Positions 9,296-61,895 of a stretch of 64,000 bases of DNA are shown piece after piece (within the stretch, counting starts at the first letter, position 1; every line of letters begins with the position of its first letter). Position numbers and translations under genes: made by a program. This DNA comes from Tubiluchus corallicola (lineage: Eukaryota; Animalia; Priapulida). Under the pieces are notes generated by a model. The model was not told the DNA's origin and did not search any database. It saw only the letters and a program-made list of their open reading frames with translations. Where the stretch lies: the NCBI GenBank assembly GCA_030141605.1, contig JAQGDQ010000055.1, forward strand, positions 372,001 to 436,000, in the 5' to 3' direction.

Positions 9296-9373
9296 GTGCG
9301 GACACTATTTGTTAGTGGACTTCCACTTGACGCCAAACCTAGAGAACTGTACCTGCTATTTCGGGCATATGAG
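9296..9373 (+). CDS. cpo: couch potato/RBPMS-family RNA-binding protein, first visible exon (RRM1 RNP2: [26 protein letters not shown])
   Basis: tttttttacag acceptor, GTATGT donor, 78 nt, phase 0/0; peptide matches the start of the cpo/RBPMS/MEC-8 RRM. Confidence 0.93.
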
Positions 9374-28653: not shown

Positions 28654-29126
28654 CAGTTAAAACACCACAACTTTGTTAAAACTTTTAATTTACATAGTTA
28701 AAAATCCATGTCAAATGTTTTGACAGAGCTACTGCTGTCATCATCAGCGGTAAATTTTTACAAACATACGACCGGTTTATATAGACAGAGCCTACAGTAT
28801 AGAACGTTATGCATTATGTGTTTAACAGAAGCCAAATAGATAATGAATAAGCAGACCAGTAGAAAAGAAATTCATACACTAAATTATGCACAAATTATGT
28901 GTTTACAAAAATCCAAATATGTAATGATTAAATGCATGATTTTGGCTTCAGTTAAATCCATAATTAATGCATAATGTTCTATATTGTAGACTCTGCTTAT
29001 ATAAACTGGGTGTATGTTTGTAAAAATTTACCACTGATATTGGCAGGAGTAGATCTGACGAAATGTTTGTCCTGATTTTTAACTATATAAATTAAAAGTT
29101 TTAATAAAGTTGTAGTGTTTTAACTA
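28654..29126. mobile_element. Foldback MITE with ~185-bp imperfect inverted arms (Tc1/mariner-like ends)
   Basis: Arm 28654-28836 is the reverse complement of ~28941-29126 (cagttaaaacaccacaactt...gaagccaaa / tttggcttc...aagttgtagtgttttaacta), flanked by TA. Confidence 0.85.
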
Positions 29127-30681: not shown

Positions 30682-31168
30682 GTGAGATTGTCTCTTGTAT
30701 GTTAGATCTTAAATTTCTGCTTGCTTAATGTGAAAAAGGTGTAACTCACTGCTTCTTAATTTAATGTAGCAAAACCATTATTAATACCAATATTCACTAT
30801 TATGTGTTGTCTGATATATCCTACTTCGTAACTGTTAAATTTTCAAGAAATCAGCTCGTATCAAATGTGTAATGATAATCGTTACATCACAGCTTCAGTT
30901 TTTGGTATTTGAAGAAGGAATCTGAATTCGTTAAGAAAATCAGCAGTGGTCATGTGTTCGAAAGCAACATTTTATTGCCACAGAACATCGTGACCCAGCT
31001 ATGTTTGGTGGGTCTTCATGTTCTATGACAATAAAATGTTTTGTAGTACGTTATTTGTGCTCGTTTTTAATTTTCCTTGTTTTTCTTTAGCACACTTTTG
31101 GATAATGTCTCGAGAAAGTCAAGAAATCAAAATTTTTTCCCTCGTTTTTGTATATTGAATAATAGTGA

Positions 31169-31310
31169 CCGGCTGGCGTAGCTCAATAGTAGCGTGCTCG
31201 CTTACCACCCGGGAGGATATGGGTTCAACTCTCGACCGAGTCATACCAAAGACTTGAAAATGGTACCGCTGGTTCTTCTACCAAGCATGCGGCTTTATCG
31301 AAGTAACGTG
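31169..31310 (+). mobile_element. tRNA-derived SINE
   Basis: A box tagctcaatagt, B box ggttcaactc, followed by a SINE-core-like gtcataccaaagacttgaaaatggtac. Confidence 0.7.
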
Positions 31311-31443
31311 TGGGTAATAATATTCGGGACAACCTTGGAAATAAGTATTGAGTTACTTAAGCTGTTGTCCTTGGAATATGTCCTAAACGAAATTATTATC
31401 AGAATGACATTTATTCATCTAATTCCTGTAAACGTTTTTCTAG

Positions 31444-39625: not shown

Positions 39626-41031
39626 TACATGTATTTGAAAATATCATTACACATTAACAGTAGTAGTAGTTAATTTATTGACATATCCAAACATCACACA
39701 AAGTTATGACAGCATGTCCTTTAATTAATAACAAATACTCAAACTTATTCAGAGTGCAATTAAAACAGGTCAAAACATTTTTTGCAAAACTAGCTAGATC
39801 TACATGATTACTGATAGCACACAAGGTAGGAACATTAGTAAAGATGAAGCTGTTTGAATAAACGCATCTGAGGTGCACTGATTTAGGTCATTAACAAAAT
39901 ATGTTCCTCCGTCTGAATGCTAGTTGTGTCACAGGTACACAGGCGTTGTTCTCGAAGACTAGATCAGTGGTTCCTAACCTTTTACTTAGCCATGTACCTT
40001 TTAGAAATTCAGCGATCTGTCGCGTACAATATGAGTTTCAAGAAAACATTTCTACTTGAATGATTTAAATACACAAGCGTAATTTAATTACACAAGCAAA
40101 GCCGATAAACGAAACACCAAATTCAATAACAACCTGCAAAAAAGACAATCGGATGTCAAATCAGAAAACGAACTTGCAATTGAACTATGAAGTAGTCTGA
40201 ATCAAAAATATCTAAACATACAACAAGATAATAAGCAAAAGGCAATGATAACTATAACGCAAATAATGCGGTACAAATGAACATAAAAATAATCAAAATT
40301 CAAGCTGTCATATCGTCCATGCATAATTCAAAATGAGAAAAACAAAATAATAACAACAAAAAAAACAAATTAAATAAGCGAACTAGCGAAACAGAAATGT
40401 AAAATTAAATTTCAAACAGGGAACTGAATCATGCTGCAAAATAAACGCATTAAAATATAACAAAAGTGTCTGAATAATAAACAAAGCAAAAGAAAAACAA
40501 ATAACAGCCAAGTTTGAGTCAGATAGCGAAAATTGATACTGCTGACTAATTTATGACTGTAATTCATACAGTCCTATCCTAATGTATACATAAATATGAT
40601 ATTTTCCTAGATTATAAACTTATGACAGATTTCTGCTATCATGAAGCACTATTATAACATATATGTGTACTCGGAAAATTTTCAAAATAGAAAAATAACT
40701 GTAAATGTATGAGGAACAATAATGATAAGTGTAAGCGAAATTTTCGAGAAACTGATCTAAAGAAGGAATTGTTAGTGAATTCTCTCGGAAGTTTATTCCA
40801 CAGCAAAGTGCCATTATGTTTTAAGGTACTTAGCCCAAAAGAAATAAGGTATTACAATTTTAATGTTAAGATTACATTAATCAATTACCCACGGGTATTT
40901 CAGAATCAAAATTAATAGCTATTAGTGAGAGTCACTCTACTGTGAGCGATCTAACATTGGAAAAACTAAATTCGGTTGGTCAGCTATAAGGAATATTTGG
41001 ATGAATTTTGGACTGTCCTTGACCACTGGAA

Positions 41032-41105
41032 GATATAGTGGCCGGTTGGTCTTAGGCGTCTGGCGTGCAAGTAGAATGTCCCTGGTTCAAATCCAGGCTG
41101 TATCC
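41032..41105 (+). pseudogene. tRNA-like cloverleaf (TGC/Ala-type anticodon position), probably a tRNA pseudogene or SINE head
   Basis: Acceptor gatatag/ctgtatc, D stem gcc/ggc, T arm cctgg-ttcaaat-ccagg, TTTT at 41110; anticodon stem has a G.G mismatch and G at position 33. Confidence 0.6.
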
Positions 41106-41861
41106 CTACTTTTCACACTTTGCCATTTCCGTTACCTTCTTCCGAGGGATCACAATAGGCTCGGAGATCGAAGGAGTTCATGCTAGGCTGATTTTGCACC
41201 TCATTTCTAGCATTTCTGTAGTTGCCACACATCAACGGAGTTTCAGTCAAAAAATAAACAAAAAATTGCCCCTTTTGGTTCATGTAAGAGCTTGCAGAGA
41301 TTGGAGAAAAATTTTAAACGAAAATTAGAAATTAAAGTGTGGAGTGACTTTTGAGACATCCTGTATCTTACAACTTTGCCTACTCTGGTCCAAACGAAGC
41401 CAGTTCGTGTATGAGAGTTTACTAATCTACTGCTTTTAAAAATTATTAAACTGAGTAAGTTTACAAAAAAGAGAGAAAAGAGAGATAAACAGAGACTTAT
41501 CTTTATAAGTCTTCTTTCACATTGCATCATGGAATTCTTGAATGGTTACTTCAAAGAAGTCCGTTAAGACACCAAACCATATACAAGTTAGAAGTGAAGA
41601 GGCTTCCTTTATCAAAAAAAGGTTTTAAATACAGTGATACATATTACTTTAGGCTACCAACTTTAGATCTAGCAGCTAAATCATGTTTCTCACACGATTT
41701 CTTTTGAAACTTTCAAAGTAAGTCCGACAAAAATCGTGCGTGTGTCAGTTGCCGTTACAAATACAACAGATGGAGAAAACAGTCACAAATTAATAACTTA
41801 ACTAAATTAATTAACACTAAACACAATGATTTCTATTAAACAGCGCGTCTATCCTATTCGT

Positions 41862-41990
41862 CTAGGGCTGTTCAGTGGTGCACAACACGGCTTCAGTTGT
41901 TGAGGTGTTCGTGTTGTAAGATGGCGACCAAGGAAGTTGTGGTCTGAACTGCCGCAACAGTATAAAGTATGTGACTAGCAGTCCCAGAGT
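41862..41990 (-). CDS. Gustatory receptor(-like) shared constant exon 3 (TLGLLVTYFILLRQFRPQLPWSPSYNTNTSTTEAVLCTTEQP*)
   Basis: aaaatttcag acceptor, phase 0, TYhhhhhQF superfamily signature (TYFILLRQF), TAG stop. Confidence 0.9.
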   Translation of the reverse strand, partial: TLGLLVTYFILLRQFRPQLPWSPSYNTNTSTTEAVLCTTEQP

Positions 41991-42417
41991 CTGAAATTTT
42001 GAGTACATGTAATTATTATCACGCATGCAATGGCAAAGTTAAGTAAAAAAACAGCTACCTCGTTTGTCAATGTTTATTACTCCGAATGAGTACGTCAGAT
42101 ACTCAGCTTGAGTCCTGGATTACTCAGCTTTAGCAAAGAAACTGCCAAATGTTGCATAGCTTTTTAATTAGTAGTAAAATATTGATATAACTTTATATAA
42201 AATTTAACAATTTGTTTTAAAATTATTAAATTACTAATTATTCGTTTGAAACACTAGTTGTAGGTAATTTTCACTAATGCCTTTGGCCCACTCACCAGCA
42301 GCCCACATTTTACTAAAGGAGCTAGCAATTTCAAATCAATACGTGCTACACTTTACCGGACAAATGGCATTTATTATAAGGCATAGCATGAGATAGTTTA
42401 AGTTTAGCGAAACTTAC

Positions 42418-42507
42418 TGTTAGAACAAATTTTCTGTCTATGGAGTAAAAGTTTGCAGCTGTAAATCCAATCCTTGGGCCACTTAGTCGCTTTACAAACA
42501 GACTGAC
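42418..42507 (-). CDS. Gustatory receptor(-like) shared constant exon 2 (VSLFVKRLSGPRIGFTAANFYSIDRKFVLT)
   Basis: tttttcataatag acceptor, GTAAGT donor, 90 nt, phase 0/0; typical GR pre-TM7 motif FTAxxF(F/Y)xI. Confidence 0.9.
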
Positions 42508-43031
42508 CTATTATGAAAAAACAACAAATGCTGTCAAAATTGCATGCAGTTAATGACTTGAAGAATCGATTCTATTTAAAAAATAAAACGAAAATTTACC
42601 GGCTGGCAAATGTTCAAACTGAAAAAATACAAGAAGTATGCTAATCGATTTGTGGATAATCTGGGTTAAACTTCCAAAATATTTTAGGCTTTATAATTTA
42701 CTTATATACGCTAACAAAGAACGCAGAAAATTTTACACAATAGCAGCCCAGCCGAAACCTGCCATTTGTGAATTCAGTACAACAGTAAGTTTTAGCAGAA
42801 ATTCGAATTTTAATACACTTACTTTTAACACTTATTAATATTGCAAATTTGCAATGCAGTAGTTCATATTAAGATATAAAAATGTTCGTTTCTGAAAACA
42901 CATTTGAACGAAAATATGTAGATAATCAGGGTAACATGAGGTGTCTAAATGTTTGTCCATGGTTTGAACACCACAACTATTTTACCTTTCCTCGAGAGAA
43001 TAAACGCAAAAATATGACAAAACTAGCTTAC

Positions 43032-43100
43032 CTGAAACTGCTGTTCAGGTGTTAATGGAGACTCGTTTATATTATGTAACAGATCAATTGGTTCTTCTGC
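43032..43100 (-). CDS. Gustatory receptor(-like) shared constant exon 1 (AEEPIDLLHNINESPLTPEQQFQ)
   Basis: gcttttgcag acceptor, GTAAGC donor, 69 nt, phase 0/0. Confidence 0.85.
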
Positions 43101-43939
43101 CTGCAAAAGCAACCGTGATCTTTATAGTTAGGCTTAAAAACGAGGCTCGCGATGCAGGCAGATGTATACTTACATGCTTTTTGGAAACTAGATCTGCACG
43201 CGCATGTTATTGACTAGCGTCTATATGCCGTCTAAATAGCTGATTAATCGTCGATACCATAAAATCAGAATTGCTCTACATAAGTTACAAACATAGACAA
43301 ATTGCATGTAAGTTATAATTGTATAAAATAAACACTGAAAGGAAAATAAAATTTCATTGTTCTGTGAAGCACGCATTTTTCAATTGCCATTATTTTGCCC
43401 ATCTTTCCATTTCTTACCTTTCTGCATTCAAATGACCTTTGACCTTGGGTAAAAAATACTGAATTCAATGAACAGTCAGTCAGAGATGATGCTCTTTGAT
43501 TCTTTGTTCTTAATTCTATTGTTTCAGTGGGGGGGGGGGGGGTATGTAAATGACACACTTTTGTATAGTCACAGAAGGTAAAGCAAAACGGGTAAAAAAT
43601 AGACGAAAGCTCTTGATTAGCTTATGTAAGGAACCAAGACTCTACATCTCTTCGCACATTATAACGTGTCTCACTTATTGTTTTACACTTAAACTTTTTA
43701 ATGTATATACGTATATTTAATGACAGAGAAATAAATAAATATATTAACAAATAAAGAAATAACAGTAAGGATGAGCGCGTTTTTATATTCAGTATCAGAA
43801 ATCATTCAATAAAATCATTCTAGGATATTCTGACGATAAAATTACCATGATCCTATTGTTTTGATTTCATTTTATCCAAATAAAAAGTCCAATGAAGTTA
43901 TTAGTTCCACTGTTTGGAGAGCATTTTTATTATACTTAC

Positions 43940-44959
43940 GTTCTCTGTAACATCGTCACTGGTGAAACTGACAATAATCAACCAATAGAAATGACAAAAC
44001 AGTGTGACCGTAATCTGTAATAAAAACTGCCATCCCAGCTTCCAAAAACTCTTTTCGGCAATGATGTACACGCAGAACAAGATGGCCGCAGTGCTGACCA
44101 TTGTACCGCTCATAATGACCGGTCCAAAAGTTTCGTTCGTGTCGCAAGTGAGTTGACAAAGTCGTGCGTGGACAAGCCGATGTTTTCTAATTTCTTTAAC
44201 AGGATTGACTTGGGTGGACATCAAATTGAAGGTTGCTTTAAATTCACTTTTTAACATCAAGGCAAAAACTAGAAATAATGTCATTGCAGCCCATGCATTG
44301 ACGTAATACATGATGCCGAAGAAGAAAGCTACGCCAATGATCATGAGTTGTACCGTCGGTTGCGCTTCATAGTTTGGAAGTTTTGAGGATTCTTTAACGT
44401 ATGTTAAACCCAAAAGAAATGATGTTATACTTCCTAACGTGACGACCATTAACAAAGTTGCAGCTGTTCGGAGTTTTACCATCTTTGACATGCGACGCAG
44501 AGCGTCTCCTTTTTGATTTAGGTAGCTTTCCCAGCTGAGTAACAACTTTTCAATCTTTCGTCGACATTTTAGTACAAAAAGGATGTTTGCAGTTGCCTGA
44601 ATCACCATCACAAAAAACGGCATTTGGATAATTACGTCATCGTATTCATCAGTACTAAATGCTATTGCCAAAAGAAGTGAGAAAGTCGTGCTGATGACAG
44701 AAACGATGTATAAAACAGCGATTAACCAGGAAAGACATCCGCAACACTTGCTATAGGCGTTAAAATTTCCCTTGGTCGAGTATGGCCAACTTCCAAAGAA
44801 CTTCATACACATAAGAAGAGGTCTCAACGCGCTCCAAAATTTCTTCCTGTCTGGGAAGGGCACAATAGAGGAGGTAGATGGCGTTTTGTCAAAAGTAGAA
44901 GAGCTCCATTTGAAGGAGTCAATTTTCCGCGGCTTTGTCACAAAAACGAATTCAGACAT
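43940..44959 (-). CDS. Gustatory receptor(-like) variable first exon D (340 codons, TM1-TM6; isoform 435 aa)
   Basis: ATG 44959; KKFWSALRPLLMCMKFFGSWPYS motif; six hydrophobic segments; ends DDVTEN|GTAAGT, phase 0. Confidence 0.9.
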
Positions 44960-46079
44960 TAGTAATTAAGCTGCTAGTAAATTTCACTGTCTATAAAAGG
45001 GGAATGGTGCCGTCAAGTTTCTACCTGCAATCATGTTGATTTGTAGTTTTTCTCGCACGTTTAACTTTTACTAAAAGCAAGTTTTAGACGATGAGCGAAT
45101 GAAGAACTAAATAAATTCATGAACTGTTTGACTGAATAGCTCTGCAATCAAGGATGTCTCAATACTACAAAATACTCACGAAAGAAGTGGGTTTAAAGTT
45201 TGTCTAACAGGCAAAAAATGACCTGAAATATAGATTCATAGAGAAAAACTAAAATGAATATCAAAGAAGTTAAAAGAAACATGCAGAGGCCTGCAAAATA
45301 GCTACTAATAGCAAATTGGTTAGAAAGGGTAATAACAAAATAGTTAACTAATAACTTAAATCATCCTAGCAATATGATTTAATTATTTGATTGTTTGAAT
45401 TAACTTTTTATCACTTTTGTAATCTTCTTCATTCATATCAAGAAGAAATTGATTAAATATCCCTAATTTTAATTAACAGAAGTGGAAGAGCAGACAATGA
45501 AAACTTTGTCCCTCTAGCAGCCATGCCTTGAACCGCTGCATCTTGCTATGAAATCCTGCCATCCTGCCATTGTTACAACATTTCAATGTCCCGTTCTAAT
45601 GCGTCTAAAACAAGACGGTATTTCCGCGCTTTTGCATGAAACAATGCACTGACTCTGTTCTGTGTTGCTTTGTAATGTGCTGGACTACTTTTCACCACCT
45701 CTTTTCTGACTCATTTAAAAATAAATAGTTATCTAAATAGTTTATACCTTAACGCGGTCGAAATAGTTAATGATAAGAAATACCACAGCAATAACACTTA
45801 AAAAGAGGACTAAACAGAGCAAATATCACGACGCAGCAACGATGGCAATCCAGTAACATGAGTCAACAACAAACAATGCTTGGAATAATGACTGATAATT
45901 TTATGGTAAGTGAAAATTACAGGTCAACGTGTCAGTCATAATCATGTGTGTTCGCAATGTTAAATAATGGATGACAAAGACATTCACCAGACGTTTGCAA
46001 AGATGCCCTCATTTACTAGACTGCCACCACCGTTTTTGCTGATTATATGAATATGTCCATAGAACAAAAAGTTGCTTAC

Positions 46080-47081
46080 GTTTTCAGTGACTTTTCCACA
46101 AACAAAGCACAACGCAGTTAGACAGCAAAGGTGGGCAATCATTATCAAGAAAATCTGCAACAGTAGATGCCAATATGTCTCAAACGTTGCATCCCAATAT
46201 TCCGAGATGGCGTAGAGACTAAATAGTGTGGCAGCGATGTCCACCATAGTGGCAACAGCGACAATTGGCCCGAAAGTATTGTCAGTATCGCAGGTGAGTT
46301 GACAAACTTTCTGATGTGCCTGTCTGTGACTCCCCACCTGCCGGACCAGATCCTTCGCTGCTCTCATCGATTTTGTCACAGCCTTGAATTCACTTCTCAG
46401 TGACAAGGCAAACGCCAGGAAAAGAGATGCAGAAGACCAAGCATTCATGTAGAACATAAAGCTTAGAAGAAAACTTGGAATAGTAGCTAACAACAGGTAG
46501 TAGATTCGAATTTCTGCGATCTGACGTGCATACTCATATCCCACGTAAACTGACGTTCCAGTCGCTAAAATGCTTATCGTCATTAACAAAATTACAGTCA
46601 AGACCTTAACATATTTTGCCAGTTTCTGCAGAAAATCAGGTCTCTGCCATTGCTCCTCAACAACATAGTGTTCCCACTTGACTAGCAGTGTTTGTACCCT
46701 GCGGCCATACACCACGAAGAATATGACGTTAAACGCCGCTTGGACTGCCATGATGAAGAAGGGAAGCTTCAGCACGATGGTTTCAAGAACACCGATCAGT
46801 AGGAACGACAATAAACAAGTGACAATAGAACAAAGATAACATACGCCAACCAACTTCGATGCGAGCAAACAACACGTGTTTCTCATCTGGAAGTTTCCTC
46901 TTGTTGAATAAGGCCAACTTCCAAATACTTTCATGCACAGCAGCAATGGTCGTATGGATGCCCAAAACTTCTTCTTGCCTTCATTTTCTTGTCTCACAAC
47001 GATTGTGGCATCACTAGAAGTAAACGCATTGGACTGTTTTGTTCCCGTTGAGGTTGCTGGTTCTATTTTATAAACTGACAT
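46080..47081 (-). CDS. Gustatory receptor(-like) variable first exon C (334 codons; isoform 429 aa)
   Basis: ATG 47081; KKFWASIRPLLLCMKVFGSWPYS; ends GKVTEN|GTAAGC, phase 0. Confidence 0.9.
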
Positions 47082-47896
47082 TTCTCACAATGGCTCTTCA
47101 ATGACTTTGATCTTCAATTGGAAAGTATCAATCAGTTATACCTGATAAGTGAAATTTTACTGAAGTATTCAACTAATAATATACGTTATGCACGTTAAGC
47201 GGTGTTTCGCATCAGCCGGCATCATAATACTGACAATAGAAATAAAGTAATAAACAAAAACATCTGTACTAAATACACAGCTAGTAAAAGCACATGTAAC
47301 ACAAAAAATTAGACTGCACTGAACAAAAAATTATGAATGTACAGTTTCTGTAACACATTAAACACAATAGACACTCACAGCAAGAAAAAATGCGAATATT
47401 TTTCATAAGTATTTTGCTATATAGTTGCTTTTATAAGTTAATCTGGAATTGGATTTTAATTAATCTGAATTACCCCTAATTTTCGTCAAGTTCTTTGGTT
47501 TTCCTCACATGAAATGTTTCGCTCAACACCTCAAAATGTGTAAAAACCAGGAAAATTAAACTTGGGTAACATAAGCACACAGAAGAAGCGATTTTTGTGA
47601 GGTACTTGTTGACTTTGGATCAGTGGCTTAAGGACAAGAAATTTCTATGAACAATTTGTTACTCAAAACGTTTGTTACTCTTAAATGTTTACGTTGGAAG
47701 CATTAAACAGGCCTGCTGAACAATTTACGCAACTGATAAACTATTCCAAAACTTTGCCTTATATTTGTTTTTTTAAATTCAAGTATTCTAAATCAGTGAC
47801 TGAAGAAGTCTTTGTTACAAGTTTAATTAAATTGTGGTATATGAGCATACTTTTCAAAATAAGTTCCCAAAGCAAATTTGAAGAACTGTACCAAGT

Positions 47897-48240
47897 TGGT
47901 AAATCTAACATTGGTTGTGGTAAATCTAACATTGACAGTGGTAATACTAGCACTGGCACTGGTAAATCTAACATTGGCAGTGGTAAGCCTTAAATTGGCT
48001 GTGGTAAATCTAACATTGGCAGTGGTAAACCTAACATTGGTAGTGGTAAATCTAGTATTGACAGTGGAAATCTAACATTGGCAGTGGCAAATCTAGCATT
48101 GGCAGTAGAAAATCTAGCAATGGCAACAGTAAATCTAGAATTGGCAGTGGTAAATCTAGCATTGGCAGTGGTAAATCTAACATTGACAGTGGTAAATCTA
48201 TCATTGACTGTGATACACCTAACATTGGTAGATAGTAAAT
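47897..48240. repeat. 21-bp minisatellite, ~16 copies (ggtaaatctaacattggcagt)
   Basis: Directly visible; accounts for the repetitive ORFs at 47685-48362. Confidence 0.95.
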
Positions 48241-48326
48241 CCTGGCATAATAGCAATTTTAATAATCGAACCCAGGATCTCAAGTGTAAATTTAAAAGCC
48301 ACAGGATATTAAAATCAGCTGCTTAC

Positions 48327-49349
48327 ATTCTTCGTTACTTGTCCACAGACCCATCCCAGTAGCACCAAGAAGACAATGTGACTGCTCAGAACAATAACAG
48401 TTTCGAAAAACAGGAAAGGTCCCACATCCCAGGTCAGACTAGCGATACGCTCAGCAATGATGTACAGGCAGAAGAGTGCGGCAGAAACATCAATGATGGT
48501 GCCTGTGACTGTGACTAATCCAAACGTGGCGTTGGTGTTATTAACAAACTGACAGACTCGCTGATGGGCATTTCTGTGCTTTTTAATATTGTAAGCAATA
48601 TTTGTGTCGCTTTTTATCGATTCTGTAATAAGTTTAAATTCTCTTGCAAACATAACTGCAAAAGTTATAAGAAGACATAGTGGAGCCCAAGCGTTCACAT
48701 GGAAGAGGCACACTAAACCGAAGACCTTGAGAACCACCATCAAATGTACTTGAAATCCACTGACAGAGTCACACTGCTTGCCCGTGAAGTCGATGCCCAT
48801 GTAAACGGCCGTGGTTACAGCTATTGTACAAATGCCAAGTAGAACAGCCAGAGTCAAAAATTTCACTGTCTTTGAAAGATGTTGTGTAACATCATCTCTT
48901 TCCTGATCCCTTTCTATCACAAACAGCTCCAACTCCTGCAGCAAAGTCTGTATCTCGTATCGAGCTTGAAGTATGAATAGAACGTTTGTAGTCGCCTGCA
49001 GTATTATCAGGAAAAATGGCAACTGAAGTAGGATTTCTCTGTTAGGCACATCGTACAACAAGTAGAGCATTGTCCACACCGTGCCTGCGATGAGGCAACC
49101 AATGTATGCAGATGCCACCGTTCTGGAAAGACACAGACAACATTTGCTGTCGACCTGGAAGTTTCCTTTAGTAGAATATGGCCACGCTCCGCATGTCTTC
49201 ATGCAAAGAAGCAACGGTCTCAAGGAAGACCAAAACTTCCTGTCAGATGACGCTTCAACTTTCACCAACGTGCTGCTGGAAGAATGCGGTTCTATGGTAT
49301 TGTTGGAAATGGATGGCACTACAAATTCGACACTGTGGTTCTGTGGCAT
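48327..49349 (-). CDS. Gustatory receptor(-like) variable first exon B (341 codons; isoform 436 aa)
   Basis: ATG 49349; RKFWSSLRPLLLCMKTCGAWPYS; ends GQVTKN|GTAAGC, phase 0. Confidence 0.9.
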
Positions 49350-50446
49350 TTTCTGTTCTGTTAAAATTAAGAATCGATGAGTGACGGTGGTGGCCAGCCG
49401 AAGGTGCCAAGAGGCTTATACATATTTTCCTTTGTACATTAAAATGTTTCGCGTGCCAAATCTCATTACTGAATTTTGTTGTTCAAATAAAAATCAACAC
49501 AGTTAGTCACATTAGTGAATTTGAAGAACCAATAGTTTAACAGACATCTTTTCACATTTTAAACATAAAGTCCAAAAACATAATCAGTGAACATTATCAG
49601 TGACACACGAGCACACGAAAAGCAAAGTTTATAGTTCGTTGTATTTTGTTGTTTATTTTTATAAATTATTGTTTATTGTAGTACACAAGCCAAATAAGCA
49701 TTTTTAATTTTAAAAATATCCGAATTAAGAAGGCGTGACATGAGATTTCTCTATTTTTCACAGAATCTTTTGCTGACTTTTCTTGGGTAATCATATAGTT
49801 TTATACAGCAATATTTGGTGGGTTTTTTACCATGTAGTATCATATCTAGATTGAGTTATTAACGCACACATAGAGACACAGACCAGATGATGAACAGGAA
49901 AGGCAGTAAAGCAAGAAAAACTTGTTAAGTAGGACGTTGACTAACAAAAAACACTGCTGCGCATGTAGTAATGATAAAGTACATTTAAAGTAGCTATAAA
50001 ATTAAACAAACGCTTCAGACGAGGTGAAAAAATGGGAAGTTTTTTTCCACATTTCATCCCACGGGTTTATGAAATATAATAACAGCCATCAAATCAAAAA
50101 TGATAATAACTTTCCAGGTGTAGCTAATAATAGGTTATAAATGTAAACAAATTAAGTCGAGCACAGAAAGGCAAATTTACCGAGGGAAATAAGCGAAATA
50201 TACCTCAACTCAGTTTCGAAGACGCTTTCCTACACAAGACTCCAAGAAAATATAATTTCTGAATCTGCATATTGGTTCGTGAAATATGTTGAGATTGTTC
50301 TAACAGTAAAACACAACTTTGGAATATCACACATATTATAAGTTCGTTATTTTTATGGCGGATTAAAAATCGATCTCGATCAATTAGTTCCATCAAGCCT
50401 TAAAAGCTTAATTTGTGAGTGAGCCTTCGCTTTGTGTTTTTTTTGC

Positions 50447-50699
50447 GAAGGCCTACGAATATGGAAGGCCTACGCGAATATGAAAGGCCTACACGAATAT
50501 GGAAGGACTACACGAATATGGAAGGCCTACACGAATATGGAAAGTCTACACGAATATGGAAGGCCTGCACGAATACGGAAGGCCTACACGAATATGGAAG
50601 GCCTATACGAATATGGAAGGCCTACACGAATATGGAAAGCCTACACGAATATGGAAGGCCTACACGAATATGGAAAGCCTACATGAGTATGAAAGACCT
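50447..50699. repeat. 19-bp minisatellite, ~13 copies (gaaggcctacacgaatatg)
   Basis: Directly visible; open in all three + frames with a 19-aa period, as expected for a stop-free 19-mer array. Confidence 0.95.
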
Positions 50700-51109
50700 T
50701 TGCCATTCATGGTTCCTGTACAGGTCACATCAAAAATTCATAGCTAATTCTGGGTATCCTGTTTCAAAGAGATAACCTTCATGTAAAATTGATTGTAAAT
50801 TAAATAGCCACTTTAACCAACGGATTAAGTTTTACAGCCTCGGTTAGCAAGATTCACGATTTCTGCTTGGGTAGGCAAAATATCGCAAGAAGATGGAACG
50901 TGCTTCAGTAAAAGCAGCTAAATAGGGCAATAGTGTGACTGTTACTTGTAGCCAAGTGACGTTCGAACGCAAAAGCTTATGTAAACAGCTGAACCAATCA
51001 TACTGAATGTATGCGTATATGCTCGGACTAGCATCAGTAGTGACAAATGTATTACAGTATTAGTAATCTGTGTAAAATAGATCCGTAAGTGTATTGTAAA
51101 AAATCTTAC

Positions 51110-52162
51110 TTTTTCAGTGACCATTCCTGAGCCAATGGACAACGTGGCTAAGAAAAAGAGCTGACCAGTGAGAATCAATCCCACTTGAAACATGGCCAAC
51201 CATCCCATTGCCCGGTAACTGTCTTCTGAGAGGACATACAAGTAAAAAAGTGAAGCGCCAATGCTGACGCTCGTTCCAAGGAATATGACGGTGCCGAACG
51301 CATTGTTGGTTTCAGACGTTAGACAGCTGACACGTTGATGGGCTTGCCTGTGTTTCCCTACCTCATTCACTAGATTCGTTGACTCTTCCATGGATTTCGT
51401 GACCACCTGAAACTCTTTTGCCAAAACGATAACAAATGACATCAGAAGAGCTAATGGCGTCCATGCATCCATGAAGAACAATGATGTCACGACGAATATT
51501 ATTATCATGGCAATCACTATCGCTCCTGTCGGTAAGTCGACATCATCACCGTCATCATAACCTTCAAGCAGGACACTTGGGTCATAATCAAAGCACAAGA
51601 ATGCCGCCGTTGAGAAAGCTAGTATACTGACAATCAGCACAGTACCCGTCGTCATAGCAATTACTTGTATCTTTAATTGGCGTAGAATGTCTCCTCCTTC
51701 TTCGTACCTTTTCGTTGAGTAACGCTCCCACATGAGCAACACGTTTTGAAGATTCTGGCGACAGACTGTAAAAAATACGATGTTTATTGCAGATTGGCAT
51801 GCTGTCATGAGGATGGGCAGTTGTAGCAGTATTGATCCAATGACCTCCTGTCTTTGTTCCTCACCCTGATGAGTGTTAACTATCAGCGATATCACAGAAA
51901 TGAGACCGCCAATACAAGCAATGTAACCCAAAACCATGAGCCTTGACAGAAAAGAGTAACATGGGCGTCGATTGTTGAAGTTACCGCTGATAGAATACGG
52001 CCAAATTCCCACGGCTTTCATGCATATCAACAAGGGCTTCAAGGACGACCAGAACCTTTTCTCTGGATGATCCGCTTGGTTAGATGATTCTGGTGTTGTA
52101 GGTTCGGTCTCCAGATTTACCACACAATTCTCTGGCAAGTTGTTGTTAGATACCTTCGTCAT
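51110..52162 (-). CDS. Gustatory receptor(-like) variable first exon A (351 codons; isoform 446 aa)
   Basis: ATG 52162; KRFWSSLKPLLICMKAVGIWPYS; ends GMVTEK|GTAAGA, phase 0. Confidence 0.9.
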
Positions 52163-54507
52163 ACTGTGTGACTTGTGGCACTGATCAGCAGGTCTCTTAG
52201 CCCATACTCTACAAGAATATTTGACGTCAAATCACGAAAATTTGCATCCGTCTCAAGATGATCAAACCTGCCACCTAATGTGCTGTCATTAAAAGTTTCA
52301 ATTAAAGTGAACTGGGTTAACATCATTCGCGCTAGGCAAACACTATGCAAGTTATACAAGCATTGTTTCTTAATAAATAACGAATTTAATAAATATATAC
52401 GCTATTACATATTTATCACTTCTATTCTAAATCGTAATTTCTTAGCTTTTTTTCAAAGTACGTTAAGACAAAACGCCTGGATTTAAATAACTAATTATTA
52501 AACAACGATTATTAAATAACCAAGTATTGCTTGACCATTACCTATTATTAATTACTTTCCATTCTATATTAACTAGCAAATATGTTTAGTAAGACCGCTT
52601 TAAGAACAAAAATACATTTTCAGAATTTTGTGAAACAAAACAACTATTTTGAAAGACAAAATGTATTTCATTATGAATTTTGCTTACACGCCGCAATTTA
52701 ATGTTTAATGGTTCCAAAAGTAAATAATTTGATAAATAAAACAGGGTCAATACATGCTTACAACACAGCTGAAATTATATGATAAGTAATGAATTAACAT
52801 TGAAGATTTACGATAAGAAATGTTAAAGAGTCAAGCCATAATCCAAGCAAACAAACAAAATCAAATCGAACAGAAGATGATCTTTTGAATAACAATATAA
52901 AATAGTGAAAAATACTACTAATTACTAGTATTTGTTAATTTTTATTGCTATTCAAAATCTATTTCGCATCGTTGATTACAGTGACTAATATAAGAAGTCA
53001 AACTGACACCGCACAAAACTTCTACAATGTTTGATTTTTAAATACAAAAATTCCAACGAACGCAAATTAAATAAAAATTCAAAAGTTACTACTTCAATTT
53101 CATGAATTCTGAATATCTTAAAATCTTAACAAAAAATGTTCGATCATTAATGTAATTTATAAACTGAAGACAATTCGCAATTTGGTAGAAAAAGCAATTT
53201 GGTTGAAATACGGTGTTTTAATAATCTGTTGACATTTCGAAAATTTCTTACAACGAAAAAAATCCCAAATAAGAAACAAAAATTTTAAAATGGAGGAAAC
53301 TCAGTCATCAATTATGCAAATGCATGACTGCGTTGTTTAAGTTTTTCGCATTTTTCTACGTACGCATTAGCTGGTTCATTCCAAACTGATTCTGGCGGCA
53401 AATTAAAACAAGTTCATAGAGGCCTAACATTTTCATGACTCGCCGCTAAAGAATTATGATGTTAAATTAGAGTATTAAAACACCGTTAAGTTTGCGTGAA
53501 AATTTGCTGACTTACCCGTTGCTTATCAGACACAAAATAACCATTAACTAATACGCGTCATAACTGCGCTGTTTGCGGCTTATTGACGGTGAAGCCAAAA
53601 CCTTAATGGCGCATCTAAAACACTGTCCAAACGTCCAAACGAAGGTTCACCAGTTACGTTAAACACATCGTTAAATAATATGTGGGCAAATCTTCGCAAA
53701 GTATCCCATCTCAATTGCAACACTATTTGCAACAACGAAGCTTATTCATACAATTTTCAAGGTTTTTAAACTTTATATGATAATTACAAGCAACGCATTC
53801 CTGCCCGCCGCTCGCCAAGCACCTTTGTGCAAAATTATATATACATTAGCATCACCAATAAACGTATTTCATGTATGTTTGTTTGCATTATATTAGTTGT
53901 GCTCACAGCAACAAATGTAACAGCAAACGGAGCGGCTCCTGAAAGGGATGATCACAAATATGATCGGAAGAAATATCTAATCTTAACTTTTTGTTTGATT
54001 CATTGGATAAGTAAGTGAACAATGTGTTTTGAACTTCACTGAAGCAGTCTGATTTGGTTTCATTGCAATAACCGTGTGACAGATTAGAGGCATAGCCATT
54101 TTGGTGTGATGGCACCCCTTTGCGTATGAAGGTGCAAACAAACAAACAGCACTTAATGCACCTGTACGCTGCAATTATTTCCCGAAACTGGGGCACAAAG
54201 GGAACACAACACCTATAACTGAACTTGTAATACCTTGTTTTGTTTGCCTTCACACTTAACTTATTAATAATAATTCGTTTACTCAGCCAAGTCGGCTTAT
54301 GTTCGCTTTACTTTTCTGTTGGTCTCTGTGTTCAACACACACCCGCAACTTTTTTACGGTATGGTGGCAGCACCAGTACGTAGTCTGAATGGAAGCCACT
54401 ACAACAGACTCTTAATGCCTAGCCCACAATGTCCTTCAAAAGAGTAATATTCAAAACCTGAACTCCGTTCACACGAGTAGTTTTCACTATTTATTATAAT
54501 AATATTA

Positions 54508-54594: not shown

Positions 54595-56033
54595 AGTCTT
54601 TTATCGCTTTATAATGATATAGGAGTAGATACGTCTTTCTAAGTAAATTAAACGCATTCTGACATTTTAAAACTGCATTGATACTGTTTTAGCGTTGCTT
54701 TAGTTTTGCTATAAAGCAATAATATAGTGTCTAATTAGTTTATAATTTATATCATTTTAGTATGTAACGCGGAGAAACCCGATTAGCAGGCTCTCGTTAG
54801 AAAATTAACCGACGTTAGAAAATTGATAGATTCTAGTTGTTAGGCAGAACTTGTTAAGATGATATGCTCAAATATGGGTGACATATTTCTATCCATGCGC
54901 ATAAATCAATTGCGCATCCATAGGTTTAACAAAAGGGGCCACCTTCCCAGTCCGGGGACAGAAAGAGCCTGTGTCTTGATAACTTTATACCAGCTTGTAC
55001 CTGAAACGTCTAGTTCTGATCTACGTATCTAATAAATGTTGGTTTTGTAATTCGAAACTTTATGGTTTTACAGCCTTCTTGGCTGTTCACGCACATTGAC
55101 TCATACGAATTCATGGACCACCAGAAGGAGCTGCAAACAGCCACGGAAGGCAACTTTATTAAGCAGCATTACCAGCGGCATTAAGGGGAACAGCTACTTA
55201 GTTCTTTCCTTCATTATGGTACTTCCTGTTTACTAACGTGTTACCTTGATGTTCATCCACCTGTGTGTGTGTGTCACCTGGCGTTCTGCTGAGTCTTTCT
55301 TTTTTTCTGTTTGAAGAGAATTCTGATTTTGCCGATGGTCTGAAGTAATTTGAGAACTTTTGTCATAACATCATAAACGTGAATTCTGTTAGATTTTCTT
55401 TGTTGTGAACTCGCTTAAAATATATTTGCGCTCCACTGTGCAAATTATTAGTGTATAAAATAATAATTACAACAATTCCTGGTGTCTGGTATACATAATT
55501 ATGTATATCACCGGTTCGTGGCAGTGTTTTTAAGCAGTTAGTTTTAATTTTAATACACTCGATAAATCTGCTATGTTCTTCTGAATTACGAAATTTTTTG
55601 AAACTGCGGACATGGGAACTACAACGCTGACACCCCAAAATCGTTGTCATTTTGATTTGCAATTGTGCGGCAATTTTGCGATGAAATTCACATTTATTTT
55701 GCTGTTTCTTATGTCGTATGGTCTGTTACGCGAGTTATTTACAAATTTTTTCCGTGGTTCGTCTTACAACTTACATGATATACGAGAACGACGAAGATTA
55801 ACAGTTAACGTAGCCTTGACTGCCTGCGATAATAAGACACGTGTTCTGGAACAATTTAACATTTTAGTAAAATCTACTCTTATGGTTACAACTTCTTTAA
55901 TTCACCTTCACATCTTTACTGATAATAACAACACGAAGAAACAAGCGATCGAAATACTAAATGAAATGAATAAAACGAAAACATTTGTAGCAAACTTTTA
56001 CTATGAACTATTGAACTATGAATTTTATTCCAC

Positions 56034-56720
56034 ACATCAAAATACATTATTATACACATAAATAAACAATAAATAAAATAATTTGAGTAGTGTGAGGTGA
56101 GTGTACGACCATACGGTCATTAACACACTCACCTTACTTAAATGAAAAAATTAATAAAGTTATGCGTGCTTTTTTAGATGACTCAATGAAAAAGGAAACA
56201 TTAGAAAAACATAATATGTAATTACGATTTTGATATGAATATTGAAATAATTTTGAAATAAAGTAAATGATGTAATAATAGCAAGGAAACATAAGAAAAA
56301 AATAATATGGAATTACGATTTAGATATGAATATTGAAATAATTTTGAAATAAAGTAAATGATGTAATAATAGCAAGGAAACATAAGAAAAACATAATATG
56401 GAATTACGATTTTGATACGAATATTGAAATAATTTTGAAATAAAGTAAATGATATAATAATAGCAAGGAAACATAATATGTAAAAACGATTTTGATATAG
56501 ACTGCGATGAATGAATAATTCATTTAAATTGATTTATACATTTTACTAATAAAGTAACATTAGTAAAAGAAAAACATTAGTGCAAAAAGACACACATGCA
56601 CAAAAAGAGAAAAAAAAGCTCTAGTTTTCTACGCCAATGAATATTTACTAAGTAAAAATATCTTGTATTGTTTGGTAGCTATTTGTAAAGAAGGAGAGGA
56701 AATGATTGTATTGGGTACAC
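56034..56720. mobile_element. 687-bp insertion flanked by the 8-bp direct repeat TATTCCAC
   Basis: TATTCCAC at 56026-33 and 56721-28, exactly where GXYLT similarity stops and resumes; no GT/AG at the junctions. Confidence 0.7.
56192..56499. repeat. 91-bp tandem repeat x3.4
   Basis: aaggaaaca... restarts at 56192, 56283, 56374 and 56465. Confidence 0.92.
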
Positions 56721-59218
56721 TATTCCACCCCTGGTATCCTATAGTGAAAACTATACCAAGTAGTTGAACCCAGCAAAGAAACGCTGCAACACAGCATGGC
56801 TTTTCCTTCCAGATGTTTTATCAAATGTGGACAAGATTTTGGCAATTGACTTGCACGTAATTGTAGTGAAACCTCTAGAAGTACTCTGGCGTCATTTTGA
56901 AAATATGTCACAATCTCAGATGATGGGTCTCGCATTTGATTACCCTGGACCGCATACTACTCGTTTGCGTCGTCGTTATCATCATTATCGTAGTCATCGC
57001 CGTCGTTATCACAAACATAAAATATCCGAGTCATTTCTTACACACTACAAGGGCTTAAATTCTGGAGTAGTTTTACTGGACTTGAAGAAAATGCGAAAAT
57101 CAAACTGGAAGACAGAAGTAATGCGAATATTTAAAATTACTAGCGAGTGTTCGCCTGCTAAAGGAGTTTTTACAGATTGTTTGGTACCGCAAAACACTTG
57201 CAATATGTACTTTTATGAAAATCCCGAAAGACTTTATTTTCTTCCCTCTCACTGGAACTTCTGGTGGGGACAGGGTTTCTTTGAAGGATACTGCAAGACT
57301 GCTTAGGCACATGGCATAGGAATTTTACACGGTGCGTGGGAAACTTTTTACAAAAAAGAAGACGAATGTAAATGGATATTTTCTTATTTGTTCAAATTTT
57401 ACAAGTCCGTGCGCGTTAATGAAACCAAAGTTTCTGTGATCGAAAAATCGAAAAAAATTCGTGATCAAACTCCATTTCAAAATGAAAAGTCTATAGAAAA
57501 ATTCACACGATGCATGACACTTGTAGAATTCATTCTCTTATCTCTAAATATAAATTACTGAGAAAATAGAAAAGTTAGAAGTATTATTGAAACTACATTT
57601 TGTGATTGAAGGTGGTCTATCATGTTATATCTAATATCTAATAAATTCAAAAGAACAGGTATTATTAAATGCTGAGTGCATCATACTAAAATGTCTTCCT
57701 CTTGAAAATTACATAAATACATCATTTAACACAGGTGTAGTTTCAAATAATAATGCAACCAACATTATTTCTTAATCTGTGTTAAACATAAAAAGGGGGC
57801 TAAGAATTTTGCTAATGTTTGCAGTCGTGTTTTATAAATTAAACTAGAAAGCTCAATTACTTTATATGTAGTTACATTACTAAAAAGAACGCTGATAGTT
57901 TTAGTTTTCGGTTCGACCTACGTCACCTGCCGAGGGGTCACTCTAACGATTGAGCTAATTATATTTCTGACCATAGCCTACCCTACCCATCAAATTTCGG
58001 TGTACGTAGTAGACATAGGACGGAGTAGACTCCAATTGTCCATTTTAGGGGAAACAGCGCATCTAATCAAGATCCATTTATGACAGTTAGAAAACTATCG
58101 TTACAGTATTTGCACTTAGCTTAAAGTTGATCATTTATCAATCATCTAATAATTGTTTTTAGCACATTAATCTATCGATTACTTATCGTGGCTAGGGCAA
58201 TGGGTCGGCAAGTTCTAGAAAGAATGTGCTCTACAAGGAGGTGGCGCGTTCAAGCGTTTAACAGCAGTTTGAAACGCTGACATTATACGACTAAAAATAC
58301 TTCACAAATATGATCGGTCTCTTTGCTGCATTGCGTGAAATACATATTTTGAGTTTTTTGTTAGAAAACTTAGAAACTGAATGTGTTTACACTATATGAA
58401 ACAGAACACCCCACTATCTTGGTACCCTAGATAGTGAAAGTGAAAAATTGTTTTTTAATCTGCGTTGTTTATTTAGTATAGTAAGTTCATACATAGTACC
58501 TATATCTAAACTTGCGTGTTATAGCACTTTAGTGTATAGTGTAGTGTACTTCTAGTGTAAAGCGTTCATTAGCTTACAATGAAATGTTGCGTCTTCATTT
58601 ACTTAAAAGATTATACGTTTGAAAAGTTTTAAACTGCTTTTTCCTCTTTGCGTGAGGTTGTTCAGTTGTTTAAGTTTGAAGTGGAAATTGAATTTTTTTA
58701 TGCTGAAATTTTAACCGTGGTGTAGACAAACATGTTTAAACATGTGAATATTATCATTTGGATTGTTCAAAGGCTTCTTACTGTGATCACCTAATTGCCT
58801 TTTCTATCAACTTTATCACTTTGAACTGCACATGTTTAACTATTAAGTGAGACCCTAGTCAACGTGGATGACGGCCCGTCAGGTGGGCCTGCTACAAATG
58901 TTTGTGAGCCAAGATTACGGTTAAATCTGAATAACAGTTTCTATCAAATTATCTAGAGTTCTCGACCGAAGTCATCTCATGCAAAAATGTAGCTTATCCT
59001 TTAAAGAAGAAACAATGGCGCAACACCTGCGCACAAGAATAGGCATTGCTCCATCTAAGGTAGATAATGCTCATCGAATCATTTTTAACTATAAGGTGCT
59101 ACGCTATGGTCATCTACGAGTTATTAGCAGTTCCATAATGACTTAGATCAGCGCCAAGAAATGGAATTTGAGTGCATGACTTTGACATCAAGTAGTTTAC
59201 TAACATGGTAATTAAAAG

Positions 59219-59896
59219 ATGCAAAACATGCAAAGAGGGGAGTGGTATGAAACAGACACGCCCATTGACTACATCTTTCAATACACCATCATTTTCCTCT
59301 GTTTGTTCAGCAATGGACTTGTCCTTGTAGTATTCTTCCGTGAAAGGGTGTTCAATTATGCAAAGTACTTCTACTTCGTCAGCCTTTCACTAGCAGGAGT
59401 TCTTTTGACAATAGGCTACACCATTGAAGTTACTGCCAGATTATTTGGCAGCACAAATGACATCCTTTGCACGGTGGTCTTCAGCATAATACAGGCAGCC
59501 GCAGCCGCCATGATGTACCAAATCTTCATCGTGACAGTGGACAGGTACATAAGCGTGGTTCACACGTTCTGGTACGCCGAGCATGTTACGAAGAGGACAA
59601 CACGTGTGACGACGACATTAGTGTGGACGTTAGGTGCCATCTTTGGGTTGGCAACTGGAATTTTCACCATAGGTGATAGTGCAGAAACGTGCAATTTCAC
59701 TTGGATGTACGGACACAGTTACACCTGGACCGTGACCATCATTTGCGTGTACCTGCCAATTGCCATTATGATTGTGCTTTATGCCAGAATGTTTGCAGTG
59801 GCTAGAAGGCATGTCAAAAGGATGAGTTCCATGCCTAGTGTGGCTTCTTATGTTAATCAGAATGGTAGTGATTTACCAACAACTACCTCTCAAATG
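59219..59896 (+). CDS. Class A (rhodopsin-like) GPCR exon 1, TM1-TM5 (adenosine-receptor-like orphan)
   Basis: SNGLV (TM1), C3.25, VDRY, LVW (TM4), YLP..LY (TM5); donor ATG|GTAAGA, phase 0. Confidence 0.9.
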
Positions 59897-60072
59897 GTAA
59901 GATCTCATAATCAAACTATTAATTAAACTCTACCAGATCAATCTCAGTCAGGTGTAAGGGAACATGAGAAAAATATAGATGACTAAAATAATTGATGTCT
60001 GCTGAAAATAGAGATCGATAAAACAGCACATTTAATGACACCCAAAATACTGTTGTGCTTGTAAGTAGTTAA

Positions 60073-60703
60073 AGGAAAACAGGATGATTTTTCAAAGTCT
60101 ACCCATTTTGAAATACGGTGAAAAGCAGAGGCATTTTAAGACCTATAATAACGCTAACGCCTTTCTGTAATGAAATAATAGGTTAAAAACTTAATTAACA
60201 GCTGAATCACAGCTGAAACAGATGGCATCACAACTGAACGTATTTATTAATAGCATAAACATCGGTAATGAGCGTGTTGCCCGTGTTTGCGGAAGCGAAA
60301 ATTGATGTATAATGCTACTGAACATTATGTACAACATTGGGTGGGATATAGAAAAACTCGGAAAATTTTAAGCTTAGAATTTAAATTTCAAATTTACTAC
60401 TATGGTCACGCATGAGCTTTCGAACGTGTGCACTACCTCACAACTGAATACCACTAAACTGAGAGGTGCACCACCTGGTTTTTGTGCAACGCAATTCTGA
60501 GATGCAGGCACTAGTGCTCATCTAACTAGCGAATAGAGAAGTGCATGTAACAGCGAAGAACTAGTGGCGTGAACGTGAAATTACTTTCATTACTGGTAAT
60601 AATTCTTTCACGAAGGTCATTATAGTAAAAGTAGGATGTTTCCTTTCAGCATTTTATAGGGTAGATTGTTTAAGCAACAGTTTAACTGAGGTCCGGTTTT
60701 CCT
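60073..60703. mobile_element. Family K1 (Kolobok-like) copy filling most of the GPCR intron
   Basis: TTAA|AGGAAAACAGGA...TCCGGTTTTCCT|TTAA (11/12 TIR). Confidence 0.8.
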
Positions 60704-60821
60704 TTAAGATCTGAAGTTCAAAAAAAATGAATGCCCATGAATTCCAAGTTACATGAATTTCTCAAGAGAAACAACCTCGCTTGTGAAATGCAAGGACCCA
60801 CAACTGTTTTTATTATTTTAG

Positions 60822-61895
60822 AGAAGAAGTTCTCGAAACTCGCTTCTAACAAACTTGAAGAACAACTGGAAGGCTGCAATCACAATATCCATTGTATTTG
60901 GAGCATTTCTGATAACGTGGGGACCGTTCATGATCATCTCAAAATTAGACGCATACGACGTCATCGAGACAGAAATCTTTGAAAATCCATCAATATTCGG
61001 CATGCTAGCTGTGTGTAATGTGATTTTAAATCCGATAATATACATAATAAGAAGCGAGGAATTCCGGAAAGCATTGAAGCGTCTGTTTAAGTCGTGTTCC
61101 TCTTGTGGAACACACGTAGACCTCAACAGTTCGCTAAGTCAAAGTATTTTCTATATAACAGACAATTTCGTGAACAATGGTCTTCAGCACGCTTACACAA
61201 ATAATTTGTACAGCTCCAGGGATGACATTGACACTAACTGTGTGGGTAGCCCTACATCAGAGGACGCACATATGCACAGCGACAGTGCAGGTGTGGCTGC
61301 AATGTTTTGGATTGGTGATGATTCCGTTGATGAAGATGCTAACAGCAGTGTTTTGAACAACACTTATGAGTCAATTGACTGGAATGCACTGCCCAACGGC
61401 AGCACTAATAATGACACAAATGCTTCACATTCAGAGCGCAACAGCTACGATACACTGAATATAGTCGGTGCAAGATCTCAAAGAAGTGAAGTAAGAAAGC
61501 ACTTGTTCTTAGATATTAACAGTGGGCAAATACACTTTAATAATGGCAGCCATATTATCCACAGTCAAACAAATGGATCTGCAGATGTATGCACTAATAC
61601 CACAAATGGAAGGGCTGCAGCATTCTACATAGGACCAGAATTATCAGAAACGGGTGACACAATGAATAAAGGCGAAACGCAAGATAAAGTTGGTACCATT
61701 AACACTAACACAACTAAAGTCAAGAAACCAAATGATAGTCCGACTAGGACAGTAACATTTCAATTAGATACTGACCCTACGGCAAAAGAAACTGACCTCA
61801 CCAAGCATTTTGAATGCAGTAATGTTAAAATCACAAATAGTGCCATGGTGTCAGAAAATAAGTCAGATAATGCGGTATTCTATTTAGAATTATGA
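60822..61895 (+). CDS. Class A GPCR exon 2, TM6-TM7 and long C-tail (total 583 aa)
   Basis: tattattttag acceptor, phase 0, in frame with KAAITISIVFGAFLITWGPF, NPIIY, EEFRKALKRLF; TGA ends at 61895. Confidence 0.9.
   Translation, partial: RRSSRNSLLTNLKNNWKAAITISIVFGAFLITWGPFMIISKLDAYDVIETEIFENPSIFGMLAVCNVILNPIIYIIRSEEFRKALKRLFKSCSSCGTHVDLNSSLSQSIFYITDNFVNNGLQHAYTNNLYSSRDDIDTNCVGSPTSEDAHMHSDSAGVAAMFWIGDDSVDEDANSSVLNNTYESIDWNALPNGSTNNDTNASHSERNSYDTLNIVGARSQRSEVRKHLFLDINSGQIHFNNGSHIIHSQTNGSADVCTNTTNGRAAAFYIGPELSETGDTMNKGETQDKVGTINTNTTKVKKPNDSPTRTVTFQLDTDPTAKETDLTKHFECSNVKITNSAMVSENKSDNAVFYLEL

Follow-up and report, generated by a model that had tools for sequence, protein, structure and literature searches.

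Introduction

The gustatory receptor (GR) gene Gr39a of Drosophila has four large exons, each encoding six transmembrane (TM) segments, which are alternatively spliced to three small exons encoding TM7 and the C-terminus (PMC2204066). Alternative long exons on a conserved core are described as frequent among GRs and odorant receptors (ORs) (PMC13388675); in Blattella, 26 GR genes undergo alternative splicing and yield as many as 13 isoforms (Gr60a-m; PMC6175461), Tribolium Gr214 has 30 isoforms (PMC6720082) and firebrat ORs share the layout (PMC6080948). A second exon of 69–72 bp and a third of 90 bp are common to GR and gustatory receptor-like (GRL) genes (PMC13388675), and a TYhhhhhQF motif together with three 3' phase-0 introns are hallmarks of the superfamily (10.1101/2022.12.13.519744, PMC7746228). 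Here, a locus of this kind is described in DNA of Tubiluchus corallicola (Animalia; Priapulida), in a window of 64,000 nt (GenBank assembly GCA_030141605.1, contig JAQGDQ010000055.1, positions 372,001 to 436,000). The preferred reading, to which we give a probability of about 0.85, is that a single GR/GRL-type gene carries four tandem long exons (A to D), each likely spliced to the same three short exons to yield four receptors, most likely with a role in chemical sensing.

The layout is already well known in insects, and what is new is its presence in T. corallicola DNA. An initial annotation of the window had named Gr39a as a precedent for long exons on shared 3' exons, which the literature bears out. 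The layout is common rather than rare, since Gr39a is identical in plan, with four large and three small exons, and the pattern is called frequent. The spliced GR loci of hexapods, including the 'bitter GR supergroup' (Blattella, Tribolium, Thermobia), are also alike in having a long first exon, exons of 69–72 and 90 bp and a short last exon, all in phase 0, and in joining several long exons to a conserved core; unlike several of these, the present locus has only four long exons. Clustered protocadherin and UGT1 loci also set large variable 5' coding exons on constant 3' exons, but their proteins are unrelated and the likeness is one of analogy only.

Outside the arthropods, the receptors SkowGRL1 and SpurGRL1 share the TM7 motif and the 3' introns (PMC7746228), and GRLs are reported to be absent from chordates (PMC7746228). 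In the partly covered literature that was searched (including PMC5850775, PMC4244043, PMC7067487 and PMC11730519), no report of alternative long exons outside hexapods was found, nor any paper describing them in GRLs of the SkowGRL1/SpurGRL1 type.

Results

Four long exons and one set of short exons

The seven exons (Table 1) were confirmed base for base at the coordinates, phases, donors and product lengths that had been proposed for them. All seven lengths are divisible by 3, the shared 3' exons are all in phase 0, and the six donors read GTAAG and the three acceptors YAG. Each long exon opens with ATG and ends at a homologous codon, in VTEK (A), VTKN (B) or VTEN (C and D). As the background frequency of GTAAG in the window is only 0.00086 per position, four such donors at the homologous codon are not due to chance. 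When joined to the short exons, A, B, C and D give products of 446, 436, 429 and 435 aa, respectively, with one terminal stop each.

Table 1. Exons of the receptor locus and acceptor-like sites upstream of its long exons (positions in the window)
Feature	Position	Strand	Length	Description
Variable exon A	51110..52162	(-)	1053 nt, 351 codons	ATG to TM6; phase-0 GTAAG donor
Variable exon B	48327..49349	(-)	1023 nt, 341 codons	Phase-0 GTAAG donor
Variable exon C	46080..47081	(-)	1002 nt, 334 codons	Phase-0 GTAAG donor
Variable exon D	43940..44959	(-)	1020 nt, 340 codons	Phase-0 GTAAG donor; closest to the shared exons
Shared exon 2	43032..43100	(-)	69 nt	Predicted cytosolic extension of TM6
Shared exon 3	42418..42507	(-)	90 nt	S7a and hairpin before S7b, as predicted from GR structures
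Shared last coding exon	41862..41990	(-)	129 nt	Pore helix S7b with TYFILLRQF (from 41972), short tail, stop
Acceptor-like YAG of A	52208..52230	(-)		46 nt before ATG; 8/12 pyrimidines; possible end of a 5' untranslated region (UTR) intron
Acceptor-like YAG of B	49357..49379	(-)		8 nt before ATG; 9/12 pyrimidines; putative
Acceptor-like YAG of C	47141..47163	(-)		60 nt before ATG; 7/12 pyrimidines, weakest of the four; putative
Acceptor-like YAG of D	44990..45012	(-)		31 nt before ATG; 11/12 pyrimidines; putative

The long exons are 34–40% identical to one another, with the alignment running to the last codon. Exon A matched C, D and B by blastp with E values from 2e-64 to 1e-57, and A, B and C each match D as homologs at E<=6e-58. 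When neutral evolution was simulated with substitutions only, none of 2000 copies was still open at 40% identity, and 0.3% were at 78%; therefore, selection is required to explain four open frames at the observed divergence. By hydropathy, six segments were found in C and D and one more in the last exon, whereas in A and B a long TM4 splits and seven were counted.

When the 95-aa constant part was compared with the whole window by tblastn, the three short exons were the only matches (E 3e-24, 4e-15 and 1e-12) and no second copy was found, the next best hit having an E value of 0.98. The three spacers between the long exons, of 1760 (A–B), 1245 (B–C) and 1120 nt (C–D), were also scanned for open AG..GT exons of 60–102 nt. 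None of the 18 candidates resembled shared exon 2 or 3: their best scores were 6 and 21, respectively, compared to self-scores of 121 and 149 for the true exons, and the score of 21 derives from a 21-bp tandem repeat. A six-frame search with the TM7 motif pattern gave three matches, one of them in the locus (41972). Thus, the claim of a single 3' exon set stood, no private TM7 exons having been found.

Could there nevertheless be four separate tandem genes of the usual kind, each with 3' exons of its own that the assembly collapsed or that are too diverged to be detected? The whole locus is spanned by no contig of a DNA sequencing run, X1 (possibly the source sample), as such a collapse would allow. 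However, the window is free of N, X1 contigs follow it through 47947–49692 and 49721–50829, and each spacer is shorter than the 2078 nt that separate the donor of D from the stop. In addition, further copies of the 3' end would not escape detection, as no part of the family is better conserved. Collapsed tandem genes are thus hardly credible, and a single set of shared exons is retained.

Two minisatellites lie in the spacers, one between B and C (47897–48241; 21-nt unit, 16 copies) and one between A and B (50447–50699; 19-nt unit, 13 copies), the latter being 114 nt shorter in X1.

Receptor family and fold

Pfam 7tm_7 (PF08395) was scanned against single exons and relatives, and exon D, one of the four window exons, passed it (E 9e-8, 32.2 bits vs. 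a gathering cutoff of 26.6, profile positions 1–296 of 370). A HMMER scan of 1.84 billion representatives yielded seven relatives (P0001 to P0007; E 1e-40 to 2e-11), all of them Logan-only proteins without names, four of which also pass 7tm_7 (31–45 bits). In this respect the locus differs from Gr39a, as no sequence link to fly GRs was obtained. The sequence TYFILLRQF fits the TYhhhhhQF motif of TM7b, with Arg at one of the five h positions, and the shared exons of 69 and 90 nt, in phase 0, match the published GR/GRL gene structure (PMC13388675).

Structure prediction pointed to the same family, whose fold is marked by long TM4–6. The model of exon D had a predicted local distance difference test (pLDDT) value of 57.6 and, among the matches listed, the top 20 were all ORs or GRs. 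For P0001 (pLDDT 77.8), 20 GR, OR and Orco entries were recovered at Z scores of 17.8–21.6, the next fold reaching 9.5, and the top Foldseek match was BmGr9 (E 4.8e-4, TMq 0.68); in this model, shared exon 2 prolongs the TM6 helix. The nearest neighbours by language model were GR clusters (0.93–0.95). Sequence searches with other tools were negative: the PDB searched with an 11-row profile gave a single chance match (E 0.2), a word-based homolog search with exon D gave 0 of 4903 candidates at E<=0.001, and of the pattern matches obtained in two metagenome scans (83 and 182) none was confirmed. The assignment to the GR/GRL-type 7TM channels made in the initial annotation is thus supported by family and fold, with activity as tetrameric ligand-gated cation channels that have a cytosolic N-terminus being predicted.

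Comparison by eye with described receptors gave 17 ungapped matches to SkowGRL1 over the 45 residues that run from exon 3 to QF, and 10 matches to SpurGRL1 in an N-terminal 18-mer of D (PMC7746228 supplement). Over the same 45 residues, a dipluran GR agrees at 19 and Gr64a of Drosophila at 11 positions; the resemblance is thus divided between a hemichordate GRL and a dipluran GR. The tail after QF (41862–41945, (-)) carries an N-glycosylation sequon both in this gene and in P0001, which fits an extracellular C-terminus.

A splice junction in a relative

A search for RNA of this species found none, run X2 giving no record over 41.2–53.2 kb or 43.85–47.15 kb, which says nothing about expression. 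Evidence on splicing came from P0001, which is 78% identical to exon C over 263 aa. This protein passes from the C ortholog into exon 2 exactly at the predicted codon, with 22 of 23 aa of the exon 2 part identical, and from there straight into the last exon, which is 80% identical and has the same end; the 90-nt exon 3 is skipped in frame. P0001 sits on one Logan contig of 2032 nt, whereas the span that it covers is 5007 nt in the present genome. Prodigal does not splice the genes that it calls. It was the gene caller used for Logan (Logan preprint), and the first Met of P0001 aligns to a TTG codon of exon C, as expected of a bacterial-type start call. Given an unspliced gene call on a contig so much shorter than the genomic span, the contig must be a spliced sequence, either an mRNA or, less likely, a retrocopy. 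Judging from this contig, the C ortholog is spliced to shared exon 2 in the relative.

In an 11-row tree, for which P0001 was trimmed to the variable part, C and P0001 were grouped with support of 100/99. C and D are 38–40% identical compared to the 78% between C and P0001, so D diverged far earlier than C and P0001 split, and the splice in the relative probably bypasses a D-type exon, although this exon may instead have been lost there. In all six other relatives (P0002 to P0007), a Val directly follows the homologous codon, as reading through a phase-0 GT donor would give; therefore, this gene structure is family-wide. Two of them, P0003 and P0006, are further long-exon open reading frames (ORFs) of the family, each on a 4101-nt contig, possibly one and the same contig with a second tandem array.

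When further proteins with the constant end were sought, P0001 alone was returned (one of four candidates), and the joins of A, B and D are consequently inferred; each would be spliced as C is, from its own donor to the acceptor at 43100. The proposal of four isoforms by alternative splicing is very likely correct, with a junction at hand for the C ortholog. Alternatively, only D (and C) might be productive, with A and B orphaned or ending in introns as six-helix proteins without a pore. Neither A nor B gave a junction, each spacer contains polyA-like hexamers, and reading through the donor reaches a stop 55 codons later in A, 3 in B, 31 in C and 12 in D. Yet hexamers of this sort are frequent in AT-rich DNA, the read-through tails resemble one another neither in length nor in sequence, and A and B have retained open frames and GTAAG donors at the homologous codon. 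An exact look-up of the read-through ORFs found none of five. Unproductive A and B exons are accordingly considered very unlikely compared to four productive ones.

The skip of exon 3 means that P0001 is not the canonical transcript. It would remove the S7a and hairpin region, and the resulting form could be either splicing noise or a modulating isoform.

Choice among the long exons

An acceptor-like YAG with 7 to 11 of 12 pyrimidines is present within 70 nt upstream of all four ATGs (Table 1). The summed score of these sites was significant against random windows (P 0.0037) and against 1099 other ATGs (P 0.0030), with a crude acceptor score and a test devised after the sites had been seen. 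Their presence suggests 5' UTR introns, and thus the long exons may be first coding exons rather than first exons; of the variable first exons described initially, the individual ATGs stand, whereas first-exon status is unproven. In Gr39a, by contrast, the first acceptor is at the small-exon block (PMC2204066, figure legend).

Two arrangements would produce the same four receptors. In the one that we favour, somewhat above even odds, each long exon would be under its own promoter, with a probable short non-coding leader exon. In the other, a single promoter and a non-coding leader upstream of A would serve all the long exons, used as mutually exclusive cassettes or trans-spliced. Besides the acceptor-like sites and the contrast with Gr39a, a shared leader is favoured by donor-like sites upstream of A (52687, 52761, 53251, 53515 and 53906), by the higher CpG content of that stretch (observed/expected 1.4–1.7 in four of five windows in 52301–53800 and 0.79 in the fifth) and by the A–B spacer, in which the only GT[AG]AG donor is that of A itself. 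On the other side, strong GTGAGT donors at 47378 and 45179, lying 190–240 nt ahead of the C and D acceptors, respectively, suit private leaders, although chance sites of this type are common. Docking/selector complementarity was not above that of shuffled sequences (fractions 0.55, 0.90 and 0.13), a search for long inverted repeats for docking pairing gave none convincing, and the four leaders have no upstream 8-mer in common. A shared leader or trans-splicing is therefore regarded as unlikely, and a chance origin of the acceptor-like sites is given the same low weight, leaving private promoters as the preferred arrangement.

Variation in the long exons

In X1, a single contig of 1755 nt spans exon B, with two coding differences, and the other long exons are covered in part. 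The X1 differences nearly all change an amino acid and cluster in the extracellular TM3–TM4 loop, at 51535–51579 (A), 48766 (B) and 44355–44388 (D). Among the near-identical contigs, four of the five long-exon differences were in this loop (A 195, 201 and 210; B 195), which makes up about 7% of the covered long-exon bases; three of these loop differences occur together on the same contig. Over D, a piece of 173 nt from a weak contig of 213 nt is 93% alike, with 12 differences, seven at codons 191–202 among the nine listed. The end of this piece is presumably adapter, and the piece may be a paralog or an artefact. These differences are taken as a lead for diversifying selection, and no more.

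Discussion

In the GRs whose structures have been solved, the ligand pocket is formed by S1–S6, the pore is lined by S7b, and the anchor consists of S7a and the cytosolic parts of S4, S5 and S6 (PMC12635824). As the anchor includes S4 and S5, the variable exons carry the pocket and part of the anchor, and the shared exons would carry the terminal part of S6 together with S7a and the pore helix. Consequently, of the identical pore and anchor module proposed initially, the common S7 end remains, whereas the anchor surfaces on S4 and S5 would differ among isoforms despite the shared S7. By analogy with these structures, S1–S6 would form an extracellular pocket in which the four subunits differ, the shared S7b would line the pore of a tetramer, and the common S7 end would let the isoforms co-assemble. 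The locus itself would have grown by tandem duplication of the long exon in an ancestral gene composed of a long exon followed by the 69-nt, 90-nt and terminal exons.

Several points weigh against the reading of one gene with four chemosensory products. Exons A, B and C, and P0001 as well, remain on their own below the 7tm_7 cutoff. No junction was seen in this species, where all four joins are predicted, and none anywhere for A, B or D; the sole junction record, that of the C ortholog in one relative, lacks exon 3. No promoter was identified, and the donor content of the A–B spacer offers no private leader for B. Finally, among the near-identical X1 contigs all five long-exon differences change the amino acid, and the density of differences in exons (5/2199) is not significantly different from that outside them (17/3009; P=0.08).

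The splicing scheme could also be right and the channels sense a non-chemical cue, such as heat or light, or have a part in development. Gr28b.d is a heat sensor and GRLs of the LITE type are responsive to UV light (PMC12635824), and a function of GRLs in development has been cited (PMC7067487). The pattern found here would rather be that of ligand-tuned receptors, with tandem diversification of the part that forms the pocket, at least six further family members and allele differences in an extracellular loop. A non-chemical role is thus the less probable option, and chemical sensing the most likely one.

A broader combination can be drawn from these data, in which a non-arthropod invertebrate independently built a Gr39a-like cassette, switched as mutually exclusive cassette exons behind one non-coding leader, with the exon-3-skipped form acting as a modulating subunit and with further arrays (P0002 to P0007) making up a sizeable GRL repertoire that annotation misses. 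Taken as a whole, this combination is improbable.

Gene finders would call one receptor at such a locus, or four truncated ones, so that repertoires with loci of this type would be undercounted; the published counts of non-arthropod GRLs are small, for instance two per spionid worm (PMC11730519). On the sequence evidence, the neighbouring genes, together with the reported absence of GRLs from chordates, would point to a bilaterian invertebrate without singling out a phylum. As none of the hits among the 1.84 billion representatives carries a name, a well-studied insect order is weakly disfavoured, and we judge a non-arthropod host slightly more likely than not, with the independent origin suggested initially for a non-insect lineage as a hypothesis. 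If the host lies outside the arthropods, the ancestral gene with a long exon and a short tail would have become cassette arrays repeatedly in different phyla, whereas in an arthropod host the locus would be a matter of routine GR annotation. In either case, four pockets on one pore helix would be a natural set for probing ligand tuning and subunit mixing.

Other features of the window

Tail to tail with the receptor locus lies a couch potato/mec-8 gene with two RRMs (9296–34700, (+)), with exons near 9296, 19049, 20811, 24166, 30477, 31444, 32830 and 34631. The RRM2 exon matches MEC-8 (E 1e-8) and the RRM1 exon matches RBPMS; the exon at 24166 has a tandem CAGCAG acceptor in front of it. Frames of degraded EGF repeats, broken by stops and shifts and with a period of 111 nt, occupy 6520–7446 (+), upstream of the first RRM exon detected.

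On the other side of the locus, AT-rich broken GT8-like frames were found at 55585–57306 (+) (PF01501 E 4.6e-8 for 56764–57303), interrupted by a 91-nt tandem repeat. They are followed at 59225–61895 (+) by a two-exon class A G protein-coupled receptor with a long C-terminal tail (7tm_1 E 5.9e-23), for whose exon a word-based search among 3402 longer proteins recovered no homolog at E<=1e-10.

Rfam and tRNA scans of the window gave no matches, and a relaxed ARAGORN run returned noise. Two single-copy stretches headed by a tRNA-like part and resembling short interspersed nuclear elements (SINEs) were located at 31165–31360 and 41015–41215; no motif was found for the SINE-like stretch in two supplement files of the MetaSINE paper. 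At 28646–29134 lies an inverted repeat, imperfect (77% identity) and about 490 nt long, that is similar to a miniature inverted-repeat transposable element.

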